This document shows, piece by piece, positions 9,152-12,645 of a DNA stretch of 64,000 bases. Position 1 is the stretch's first letter; each line of letters begins with the position of its first letter. The notes beneath the pieces are model-generated. The model saw only the letters and a list, made by a program, of their open reading frames with translations, had not been told where the DNA came from and ran no database searches. Source of the stretch: Dehalococcoidia bacterium (GTDB lineage: Bacteria > Chloroflexota > Dehalococcoidia > Lucifugimonadales > UBA3495); the NCBI GenBank assembly GCA_965116565.1, contig OZ220699.1:483589-547588 (forward strand), given 5' to 3'. Position numbers and translations under genes: made by a program.

Positions 9152-9463
9152 TTAGCGATATGGCTGGACCACCGCCAGCTTTTCCGCCATACGATCCTCG
9201 GCGGTTTCCAGGTCGTACTGGTTCTGTATCCCCATCCAGAACGCGGCGCTGTTACCGAAAAACCTGGCCAGCAGCAGCGCGGTTTCGGCGGTGATGGCCC
9301 GCTCTCCGTGCACGATTGCGTGAATGCGCCGCGGGTCCACACCTATGGATTTAGACACGCGGTATTGGCTGATGTTCAAAGGGATCAGGAACTCCTCGTT
9401 GAGGATTTCGCCCGGATGGATAGGTGGGAGCTTTTCGTTTTCGTTGGATATGCTCAAATTCAT
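9152..9463 (-). CDS. higA: HigA-family antitoxin (XRE HTH)
   Basis: IHPGEILNEEFL...ITAETALLLARFFG...FWMGIQNQYDL; start reassigned to ATG 9463 (GGAG RBS). Confidence 0.93.
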   Translation of the reverse strand: MNLSISNENEKLPPIHPGEILNEEFLIPLNISQYRVSKSIGVDPRRIHAIVHGERAITAETALLLARFFGNSAAFWMGIQNQYDLETAEDRMAEKLAVVQPYR

Positions 9464-9502
9464 GGTTGCTCCTGCACATAATTCCGGTTTCACATACGAA
9501 CT

Positions 9503-9784
9503 TCAATGGTAATCGGTCAACTCAACCTCCAGGGCGTTCCCTGCTTTCCATTCGAAGCAGATCCGCCATTGTTCGTTTATCCGAATGCTATATTGTCCAT
9601 TGCGGTTGCCGGAGAGTTTTTCCAGACGATTGCCAGGCGGTATTCTGAGGTCATTTAAGTCAATGGCATTGTGTAGTATCGCCAATTTTCTCTGCGCGCC
9701 ACGCTGCAAATCCTGAGAAAAACCCTTGATCCGTTTGCGACGAAATATCGATTCAGTATCAGAATCTTTGAAGCTTATTATCAT
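9503..9784 (-). CDS. higB: HigB-family RelE-like toxin
   Basis: MIISFKD, LRIPPGNRLEKLSG, YSIRINEQWRICF, DYH end; upstream of higA. Confidence 0.93.
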   Translation of the reverse strand: MIISFKDSDTESIFRRKRIKGFSQDLQRGAQRKLAILHNAIDLNDLRIPPGNRLEKLSGNRNGQYSIRINEQWRICFEWKAGNALEVELTDYH

Positions 9785-10085: not shown

Positions 10086-11807
10086 TTACCCAACGTCCTC
10101 CACCGGCACCGTCGCGATGCCATACGTCCCGTAGAAGAAGTTGGCGTAGTGGGTGGAACCGCCGGTGACCCACAGCAGGTACTGGTCCGGATCCTCCAGC
10201 GCCGGGATGGTGGCGTCCGGGTCGTCGGCAAGGTGCTGAAGCTCGGGGTGGGCCAGCCACTTGCCGTTCTCGTCGGTGGGCACGCCGTTGCGGATGGCAT
10301 CCTGCAATGACGCGCGGCAACGCTCGTGCAGCCACTCCTGGGCGTCGCGCTTGCTGAAGCCGGCGTTGTTCAGTATGACCGCGCGCGACGGGCTGAGCAT
10401 GATCGGATGGTACGGGCCCTGGTAGGACACGCGCTCGTTGGTGTGGCCAACTTGCGCGGACTGCGGACCCTTGATCCACGCGCCACCGCCGGCGTGGCGG
10501 TAGAACATCATGGACGCGATGTTGTTCAGCGTGTCCAGGTGGTTCTTTGAGGCGTTGTCCAGCACGTCCGTCGGGCCGGTGACGGTTACCACCGTGACCG
10601 CGCTCTCGTCGGGCCGGAACCCCTTGTCCACGTGGTAGGGCTGCCACGGGCTGACCTCTTCGTTCTCGGCAATGCACATGCCGAACTTGGTGGGCAGGCC
10701 GATGAAGTTGGGGTCGCCGGCGCCGGCCTTGCAGTAGCCGATGTTGATGAGGCACAGGCGCAGGGCGCGCCCGATGGCGGTGTTGGCCTTGTTGACCACG
10801 CCGGGCCCCATGGCCGACGTGCCGTAGTTGATGCCGGCCCGGTCCGCTATTGGACCGTTGACCAGAATCAGCGGGGCCTCGGTGTGGCCCGACACCTGCA
10901 TGTCCCGGTGGTTGCTCTCCGGCTGGGCGATGCACTCGATGGCGGCCAGCAGGATGGGGAACTGCTCCGGACGGCAGCCGGCCATGACCGCGTTGATGGC
11001 GATCTTTTCCACGGTGGCCAGGCCGAAGCCGGGCTCCATGACCATCACCACGTCCTGCGGCGCGCGGCGCGTGCCCTTCAGCATGGCCTCCACCAACTCG
11101 GGCGTGGGCGGAACCACGGGCATCCCGTCGCTCCAGTCCCGCTCCTCCATGAATCGGTTGACGGCATCGATGCCCCACGGCGATTCGTCCAGCGTGACGG
11201 TGAACACGTCGGTCTCGCTGTGGCCGTTGGTCATGCCGGACAGGTCGGCCGTCGCCGACATGCGGGTGAGGCCGAGGATGATGTTGTCAATCTGCTCGTC
11301 CACCATGCTGTGGATGTAATCGGACTGCTGCCCGGTGCAGGCGTGGGGGATGGTGACGAACGCCGTCGCGGGCTGGCCCCAGCCGTCCACACAGGACTGC
11401 CAGGCACGGGCGAAACTGCGGGCGGCGATGCCGACGGCGGGGATGCCGGCCCTCTCCATAGCTACCATGTCGTGGGCAAGCCACGACGTGCAGCCCCCTC
11501 AATGGGCGGCGGCGCCCACCATGGCGTCAACCTCGTTGGAGATGATTGCCGCCTCGGCCTCGTCGATGTGCACGCCGCGGCTGAGGGAGGGACGGCCATC
11601 ACGCCGGGGGCCGCCGTAGCTCTCGAACTTCACGTTGGAGTAACGTCGGGCGATGTGCTCGGCCACCCGGTCAACGGCCACGCCGGCGCCGCCGGTCATG
11701 TTGTCGTAAAGGCCGATGGTCTTGCCCTCCAGGGTGTCCAGGCGGGGGGCCGGCGGAACTTTGAAATCCACCCGCGCGGCGGCGGGAGACATTATTCGCA
11801 GCTGCAT
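10086..11807 (-). CDS. UGSC-family selenoprotein (UxxC thioredoxin-like domain fused to a large partner domain), ~573 aa, Sec at TGA 11499-11501
   Basis: ORFs 11499..11807 and 10086..11468 are in frame: ...VGAAAH-TGA-GGCTSWLAHDMVAMERAGIP...; hairpin downstream of UGA. Confidence 0.85.
11469..11487 (-). promoter_or_regulatory. Candidate bacterial SECIS element
   Basis: GUCGUGG-CUUGC-CCACGAC, perfect 7-bp stem starting after an 11-nt spacer 3' of the UGA. Confidence 0.65.
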
Positions 11808-11901
11808 GGTCGTTTCATCCTATGGTGAGTTTTGGGGATTCTGGCATGTATTGGGCGGCTTGGCAACTTTGGGGCCGTTGGGCTGTGCTACGATGCTGGG
11901 C

Positions 11902-12645
11902 ATGCGCGCGCTGGTGGTGTCCGACATTCACTCGAACCTGGAGGCGTTTGACGCCGTGCTGGCCGATGCGGAGAGACGCGGCGGCTATGACACCGTATGG
12001 TTCCTGGGAGACCTGGTGGGTTACGGAGCCGATCCCGGCGCGTGCATCGAGCGACTGCGGGGCCTGCCGCACATCGCCATCGCGGGCAACCATGACCACG
12101 CGGTTACCGGCAAGCTGGACCCCGACCTGTTCAACGGCGCGGCGCGGGCGGCGGCCCTGTGGACTGCCCATGCACTCTCCAAAGACGAGATGACGTACCT
12201 GGCCGGACTGCCCGAGGTGCGCACGGTGGACGATTTTACCCACGTGCACGGGAGCCTGCGCGATCCGGTGATGGAGTACCTGATCAGCGAGCCGGCGGCG
12301 TTGGCCACGTTCGCGCTGATGGCGACGCCGTTCTGCCTGGTGGGGCACTCGCACTATCCGATCGTGTGGACGGAGAACGAGCACGGCGCGGACGTTGCGC
12401 TGCTGGACGAAACGGAACCGCTCATGCTGAGCGCGGAGCAGCGGGTGATCGTCAACCCGGGCAGCGTGGGCCAGCCCAGGGACGGAGACTGGAGGGCGTC
12501 GTACCTGCTTTATGACAGCGAGATCGGCGGCGCGGGCGCGCTGGAGCACCGCCGCGTCGAGTACGACATCGCGACGGCGCAGCGCAAAATTCGCGCGGCA
12601 GGCTTGCCGGAATCGCTGGCGGACCGGCTGGGGCGTGGGCATTAG
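11902..12645 (+). CDS. Metallophosphoesterase (calcineurin-like, YfcE-type)
   Basis: SDIHSN, GDLVGYG, GNHD, HGS, GHSH, NPGSVGQPRD; start reassigned to ATG 11902. Confidence 0.92.
   Translation: MRALVVSDIHSNLEAFDAVLADAERRGGYDTVWFLGDLVGYGADPGACIERLRGLPHIAIAGNHDHAVTGKLDPDLFNGAARAAALWTAHALSKDEMTYLAGLPEVRTVDDFTHVHGSLRDPVMEYLISEPAALATFALMATPFCLVGHSHYPIVWTENEHGADVALLDETEPLMLSAEQRVIVNPGSVGQPRDGDWRASYLLYDSEIGGAGALEHRRVEYDIATAQRKIRAAGLPESLADRLGRGH

Follow-up and report, generated by a model that had tools for sequence, protein, structure and literature searches.

A UGSC-family selenoprotein fused to a partner domain of no catalogued family in a SAR202 genome, a probable selenol/thiol oxidoreductase

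Gene organization at the locus

The window, that is the whole stretch of 64,000 nucleotides analysed here, comes from the genome of a marine Dehalococcoidia bacterium of the SAR202 lineage. On its minus strand, an ORF of 102 amino acids is followed in the same frame by an ORF of 460 amino acids; nothing but one TGA and a run of exactly ten codons (GGCTSWLAHD) separates the first ORF from the ATG of the second. This arrangement, from which the first-pass annotation had proposed a hidden selenoprotein, was confirmed from the sequence. When the TGA is translated as selenocysteine (U), the two ORFs merge into one protein of 573 residues with the motif A-H-U-G-G-C-T-S-W. The translated context of Sec103 reads ...VGAAAH-U-GGCTSWLAHDMVAMER... 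and the predicted junction peptide over this residue is GVHIDEAEAAIISNEVDAMVGAAAH-U-GGCTSWLAHDMVAMER. The protein comprises an N-terminal UGSC domain, a linker and a large C-terminal partner domain, which we refer to as X (Table 1). The same gene structure is shared by 78 orthologous loci.

Two neighbours flank the gene in the window. The predicted start of a divergent metallophosphoesterase gene (PF12850) reaches ~90 nt into the selenoprotein gene at its 5′ end, so the true start probably lies further downstream. On the 3′ side, the selenoprotein gene is immediately followed by the genes of a HigB-like toxin (93 aa, PF05015) and of an HTH antitoxin (113 aa).

Table 1. Positions of the features discussed, in the window and in other sequences
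Feature	Sequence	Position	Strand	Basis or remark
Whole UGSC-X fusion selenoprotein gene, 573 codons	Window	10086..11807	minus	Translated with TGA=U
Start codon ATG of the selenoprotein gene	Window	11807-11805	minus	
Stop codon TAA of the selenoprotein gene	Window	10088-10086	minus	
102-aa ORF	Window	11499..11807	minus	
460-aa ORF	Window	10086..11468	minus	
In-frame TGA, selenocysteine codon 103	Window	11499..11501	minus	Orthologue conservation, Cys homologues, Sec machinery
U103-G-G-C106 redox motif	Window	11490..11501	minus	Motif conservation and AlphaFold secondary structure
SECIS-like hairpin	Window	11469..11487	minus	Sequence, pair conservation, synonymous-site minimum
Hairpin, GUCGUGG	Window	11487-11481	minus	
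Hairpin loop, CUUGC	Window	11480-11476	minus	
Hairpin, CCACGAC	Window	11475-11469	minus	
UGSC domain, residues 5-181	Window	11265..11795	minus	PF24696, NF041046, structure model
Linker, residues 182-200	Window	11208..11264	minus	Low conservation; pLDDT <50 at 190-196
Partner domain X, residues ~201-573	Window	10089..11207	minus	No Pfam model or solved structural relative
Cys278 codon, motif N-A-V-M-A-G-C	Window	10974..10976	minus	Invariant in alignment
AGGA, possible ribosome-binding site, 9 nt 5′ of the ATG	Window	11817..11820	minus	Reading of the sequence, inference only
Divergent metallophosphoesterase gene	Window	11716-12645	plus	PF12850
HigB-like toxin and HTH antitoxin genes	Window	9152-9784	minus	PF05015 (toxin)
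UGSC gene with Sec-TGA, second TGA, then X	C1	3282395-3283951	minus	X in the same frame
X-like fragment, residues 339-440	C1	1338956-1339270	plus	TAG and TAA stops
selD	C1	1715448-1716371	minus	One in-frame TGA
GrdB/PrdB-like selenoprotein gene	C1	2917880-2919094	plus	PF07355, 51 bits
Tandem acetyl-xylan-esterase-like genes	L069	5756-6682 and 6687-7613	same as selenoprotein gene	308 aa each
NifU-like gene	L116	9683-9931		
NifU-like gene	L118	13894-14142		
NifU-like gene	L119	9738-9992		
NifU-like gene	L121	8766-9020		
NifU-like gene	L122	6732-7004		

The in-frame TGA as a selenocysteine codon

When one genome per species was scanned, residues 1-572 were matched at 80 loci, all of them in Dehalococcoidia/SAR202/Chloroflexota metagenome-assembled genomes. 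Codons were counted in 78 of the 80, as loci cut by contig ends were left out. Codon 103 is TGA in every one of the 78 uncut orthologous loci, and the surrounding H-U-G-G-C-T-S-W-L is invariant across them. The orthologous proteins are 74-98% identical to the window protein overall and both halves are conserved: identity amounts to 69-99% over the 102 residues upstream of the TGA and to 75-97% over the C-terminal part. Conservation extends to the nucleotide level. The normalised synonymous entropy, computed only at codons with a conserved amino acid, has a mean of 0.58 for the gene but drops to 0.17-0.20 at codons 102-113, and this minimum of the whole gene lies over the hairpin described below. 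Leu110 is encoded by CTT in 79/79 sequences, Ser108 by TCG in 78/79 and Thr107 by ACG in 77/79. The sole freely varying site is His112 (CAC/CAT), where the exchange converts a G-C pair to G-U.

More distant relatives were retrieved from 1.84 billion cluster representatives (4798 relatives), and the full-length ones measure 549-584 aa and share 31-39% identity with the window protein. An alignment of homologues, suggested by the first-pass annotation as a check, places Cys at the UGA position: distant full-length proteins read GDCGSCTSW, GDCGGCTLW or ADCGSCCSW across the site. The aligned U/C-G-x-C element occurs as H-U-G-G-C in 79 orthologues, as D-C-G-S-C or D-C-G-G-C in distant homologues and as D-U-G-S-C in paralogues. 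A few homologues, such as P0127 (TGGS) and P0143 (CGAS), no longer have the Sec/Cys pair.

The genome, a single contig of 3.87 Mb with 62% G+C, also holds the selenocysteine machinery which a selenoprotein implies and which the initial reading had predicted. A tRNA-Sec scores 64.7 bits, in agreement with ARAGORN (anticodon tca), and selA (547.7 bits), selB (360.1) and selD (378.7) all exceed their cut-offs. The selD gene itself contains one in-frame TGA and hence would encode a Sec-containing selenophosphate synthetase. A genome-wide recoding of UGA was dismissed, since TGA ends 1011 of 2123 long ORFs and is thereby the most frequent ordinary stop codon of this genome.

Is the TGA nevertheless an ordinary stop? 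In the reading which public annotation follows, there are two genes: the TGA ends a protein of 102 aa, and a separate protein of 460 aa starts at ATG 11468. The frequency of TGA stops in this genome and the presence of an ATG ten codons past the TGA would fit such a reading, as would the split UGSC and X pairs which exist elsewhere in the genome and of which one shares a frame. However, the TGA lies in the middle of the UGSC domain. The Pfam match (PF24696) is one single stretch over residues 5-181 which runs across the TGA, so that two genes would yield two half-domain products, neither of which is a complete domain by itself. The ten codons between TGA and ATG are invariant with frozen synonymous sites, full-length homologues align Cys with the TGA, and each of the genome's eight UGSC domains has a TGA at the motif together with a hairpin. 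Since one match spans the stop, we read the locus as a single protein of ~573 aa, which bears out the size first proposed. Taken together, the evidence from the domain, conservation, RNA, Cys homologues, machinery and genetic code renders a two-gene arrangement very unlikely. Least credible of all is a pseudogene or an assembly or sequencing error: single-base errors do occur in metagenome-assembled sequence of this type, but the same TGA recurs in 78 independent genomes at the protein identities given above and with both halves conserved. As far as sequence can tell, the TGA at codon 103 is a genuine selenocysteine codon.

Database records mirror the difficulty of this gene for standard callers, which the first-pass annotation had expected to split it. 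Among the best 120 database matches, all 120 are ‘hypothetical protein’ truncations of ~460 aa which start just past the TGA, and no Sec-containing long form is annotated as one protein in the databases searched. The annotation error is systematic, as thousands of database entries are such 460-aa truncations.

The SECIS-like hairpin

A perfect 7-bp hairpin begins 11 nt 3′ of the UGA, precisely as noted at the outset, and it is kept in the 79 orthologues and in the seven paralogues. At the same placement, a perfect 7-bp hairpin follows only 0.75% of long-ORF TGA stops and 0.34% of random TGA triplets in the same genome; the hairpin is more than a chance occurrence. Across the 79 orthologues the stem pairs are preserved; exchanges to G-U occur, and in two cases compensation yields A-U.

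All eight UGSC UGAs of the genome have a hairpin downstream in the same register. Three pairs are constant among the eight copies, namely C-G at 16-30, G-C at 17-29 and G-C at 19-27. At 18-28, six copies have U-A, one has G-U and one has a G-A mismatch; pair 20-26 is G-C in two and C-G in six. A search of Rfam gave no match for the hairpin.

The UGSC domain

The N-terminal part of the protein matches the Pfam UGSC family PF24696 with 93.4 bits against a cut-off of 25, and all 46 aligned homologues match this model as well. The NCBIfam equivalog NF041046 scores 78.7 bits, which is below its cut-off of 125. Within its own genome, the window copy is the most divergent of eight UGSC domains (89 bits vs 125-187).

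An AlphaFold2 model was computed on the 46-sequence alignment (mean pLDDT 87.4, pTM 0.89), and the pTM value indicates that the two domains are confidently packed in the model. The N-terminal domain is modelled with a (beta-alpha)5 order. Sec103 is located between strand 95-99 and helix 104-119, which positions the UxxC motif at a helix N-terminus. In the model this domain looks flavodoxin-like rather than thioredoxin-like, and a Pfam scan gave no thioredoxin match in the UGSC protein. Foldseek comparison of the model with the PDB returned no match at E<=0.001. The weaker matches cover the N-terminal domain only and are to flavodoxin, the MccF N-domain, SIS and CpaE.

The partner domain X

Domain X stands apart from catalogued families. 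Pfam and NCBIfam scans of X alone and of 46 homologues identified no family, a PDB sequence search with the full protein and with the 46-sequence profile found no meaningful relative, and Foldseek against the PDB gave no solved structural relative of X.

Conserved positions are nevertheless numerous. Invariant in 46 diverse sequences are D227-G228 (within W-S-D-G), T235, M275-A276-G277-C278, S306, N342, G346-R347, K374 and E381. Cys278 is placed by the model at the start of helix 280-294, and it is invariant both in the 46-sequence alignment (A2) and in the eight X copies of the genome. Such conservation makes Cys278 a candidate catalytic or resolving thiol. X is also found as free-standing proteins of 345-392 aa. 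In five proteins of 709-741 aa (P0149, P0150, P0187, P0190 and P0194), X is matched in two stretches and no Pfam domain is detected; these appear to be tandem X-X proteins. A thioredoxin domain was absent from all of the 20 nearest variant architectures scanned.

Pairing of UGSC and X

The genome was searched with the full protein and with the Pfam UGSC model. The number of UGSC domains is exactly eight, and a single in-frame TGA is present in each at D/H/L/E-U-G-[SG]-C; eight X domains pair one to one with them, either adjacent or fused. The window copy is the only true fusion among the eight pairs. X precedes UGSC in five pairs, and UGSC precedes X in two. Fusions in the reverse order, X-UGSC, are known from elsewhere (P0156 and P0203), both truncated at the Sec codon.

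X recurs in related genomes in variable numbers: 6-9 copies were counted in each of 12 further genomes from this genus, and 0-4 in other families of the order. The UGSC domain was absent from 14 of 14 control genomes. UGSC and X belong together as one unit.

Two further loci of the genome deserve mention. On C1, a UGSC gene with its Sec-TGA runs into another TGA within the linker, and X follows seven codons on in the same frame; the locus looks like a fusion which a single stop codon has split, or like one about to form. An X-like fragment interrupted by stops is probably a decayed ninth copy (Table 1).

Genomic neighbourhoods

The window orthologues have no universal neighbour, and their surroundings are poorly conserved over 78 loci. 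In 31 of the 78, two AXE1-like esterase genes directly follow the gene, at the place which the HigB/HigA pair occupies in the window. The locus L069 is one example: tandem hydrolases resembling acetyl-xylan esterases begin 31 nt after the selenoprotein gene, and the same is seen in 30 other loci. Given this short distance and the common strand, the esterases may form an operon with the selenoprotein gene in those genomes.

Six neighbourhoods of long Cys forms were inspected. In four of them (Paraburkholderia, Roseixanthobacter, Phytohabitans and one metagenome contig), genes for an MFS transporter, MmgE/PrpD, an aldehyde dehydrogenase and a 3-hydroxyisobutyrate-dehydrogenase-like (HIBADH-like) protein recur, either adjoining or within a few kb. 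Genes for a TcuA/TcuB-like flavoprotein and CitB accompany them in three of these four, Phytohabitans being the exception. IclR or GntR regulators are frequent in these neighbourhoods. From its gene content, the Cys-form context points to the catabolism of small polycarboxylic acids. Around the eight SAR202 copies, no organic-acid cluster of this kind is present.

A second recurrent element of the Cys-form loci is a small NifU-like protein. Homologous proteins of 82-90 aa are encoded in coupling with, or near, the Cys-form gene in five of the six neighbourhoods (Table 1); the gene overlaps or abuts the Cys-form gene in four loci and is ~4 kb away in L118. The protein carries a CxxC motif, which is CxxxxC in L122. 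Hosts of these NifU-accompanied long Cys-form UGSC-X genes are Proteobacteria and Actinobacteria, in addition to metagenome contigs. The NifU-like protein may serve the Cys forms as their own redox or carrier protein; the SAR202 genome has no homologue of it. One Cys-form locus also includes a thioredoxin gene.

Proposed function

Jointly, these features are in all probability those of a single 573-residue UGSC-X selenoprotein, decoded by SelB with the assistance of the hairpin; the protein would act as a selenol/thiol oxidoreductase. Three features lead us to infer the latter: a Sec-x-x-Cys motif at a helix N-terminus, an obligatory partner with an invariant Cys, and the tethering and packing of both domains. 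Its most likely role would be that of a selenol/thiol-dependent reductase acting on small organic acids.

Four steps can be envisaged. X would bind a small carboxylated organic substrate. The selenolate of Sec103 would then attack the substrate or an intermediate bound to Cys278, and a selenenyl-sulfide would form with Cys106 (or Cys278). Finally, an external thiol system, such as thioredoxin, would re-reduce the centre. The paralogues could represent one type of enzyme with differing substrates. Catalysis, substrate and the role of Cys278 in X are guesses, because X has no recognisable relative.

The roles of the two domains could also be inverted. X would then be the catalytic enzyme, working through Cys278, and UGSC a built-in (seleno)redoxin which re-reduces X at each turnover. 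Thioredoxin, which re-reduces methionine sulfoxide reductase and arsenate reductase, serves as the model for such a division of labour. Thioredoxin-fused Msr and arsenate reductases resemble UGSC-X in that a flexible linker connects a small U/CxxC domain with a catalytic domain which depends on Cys. Consistent with this distribution of roles, Cys278 is invariant and the Sec/Cys pair is lost in P0127 and P0143, the placement of UxxC at a helix N-terminus is classic for a redoxin, and X exists in free-standing and tandem forms. In contrast to the redoxin-fused reductases, UGSC is modelled as a (beta-alpha)5 flavodoxin-like domain and X is unrelated to any known reductase. A strict 1:1 ratio of UGSC to X, with eight dedicated copies in one genome, would moreover be unusual for a general electron carrier, while the small CxxC protein and the single thioredoxin gene of the Cys forms suggest a separate reductant. 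Selenocysteine is mostly found at catalytic positions, which also counts against a mere redoxin role. On balance we regard this inverted assignment as possible but rather unlikely, and retain Sec103 as the attacking group of the proposed selenol/thiol oxidoreductase.

A wider proposal, which we put forward still more tentatively and regard as doubtful, is that UGSC-X constitutes a class of selenoenzymes yet to be characterised, whose catalytic domain has a fold not so far met in solved structures, and which SAR202 has multiplied to 6-9 Sec copies per genome in order to cleave or reduce different carboxyl-rich organic compounds. If this were true, selenium supply would affect how refractory dissolved organic matter is turned over, SAR202 being a globally abundant deep-ocean lineage.

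Comparison with known systems

The UGSC family has been recognised for some time. The 2008 survey (Zhang & Gladyshev, PMC2398784) ranks the UGSC-containing protein, with 255 Sec and 21 Cys forms and a UxxC motif, among the selenoprotein families that were most abundant in the Global Ocean Sampling data. It also reports a fusion of UGSC with a domain termed Unknown_1, which may or may not be X (PMC2398784). In reviews of 2022 and 2026, the family is still listed with no function assigned. The NCBI name ‘UGSC family (seleno)protein’ is already attached to Cys forms of 558-570 aa, among them proteins of Phytohabitans, Roseixanthobacter, Paraburkholderia caffeinilytica, Nonomuraea, Streptosporangium and Sphaerimonospora.

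The window protein resembles this family in its U-x-x-C motif with Sec or Cys, in the hairpin after the UGA and in its aquatic distribution. The original assignment to the UGSC family therefore holds at the level of PF24696 membership and of the UxxC type, but the motif itself is UGGC rather than UGSC. As family and fusion had already been published and named, the locus is less new than it was first rated: it is a real selenoprotein gene, mis-annotated, which belongs to a known family and has a previously seen architecture. Its interest lies in X, with no catalogued family or solved relative, and in the eight Sec-containing pairs of a SAR202 genome. The natural fusion physically ties UGSC to X and provides a two-domain construct for expression and assay. 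Furthermore, Cys versions occur in cultured Paraburkholderia, Nonomuraea and Phytohabitans, inside organic-acid catabolic clusters, where genetics is feasible; in such cultivable bacteria, the function of UGSC could be approached directly.

GrdB and PrdB, the selenoproteins B of glycine/sarcosine/betaine reductase and of D-proline reductase, which work together with GrdE and PrdA, provide an instructive comparison. In these proteins as in the window protein, Sec is part of U-x-x-C-T, follows a hydrophobic strand and precedes a helix, after which E-x-x-G-[IL]-x-[TA]-V is found. A Sec subunit combined with a second, substrate-binding polypeptide and reduction by thiols are further points of likeness. 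UGSC-X differs from the GrdB/PrdB systems in showing no sign of a pyruvoyl group, and X displayed no similarity to GrdE/PrdA in Pfam scans. Homology of UGSC to GrdB was rejected, because PF07355 misses all eight UGSC domains and a profile alignment is not significant: hhalign of the genome's own GrdB-like selenoprotein with the UGSC segment sets U on U, but with E=0.075 and a probability below 1%. In a whole-genome search at E<=1, PF07355 was matched only at C1:2917949-2918374 and by none of the eight UGSC domains. GrdB/PrdB is thus best taken as an analogy of working principle, a resemblance and not a membership. The single match belongs to that GrdB/PrdB-like selenoprotein, which carries the motif LTPT-U-PLCT and continues for ~240 residues after its TGA.
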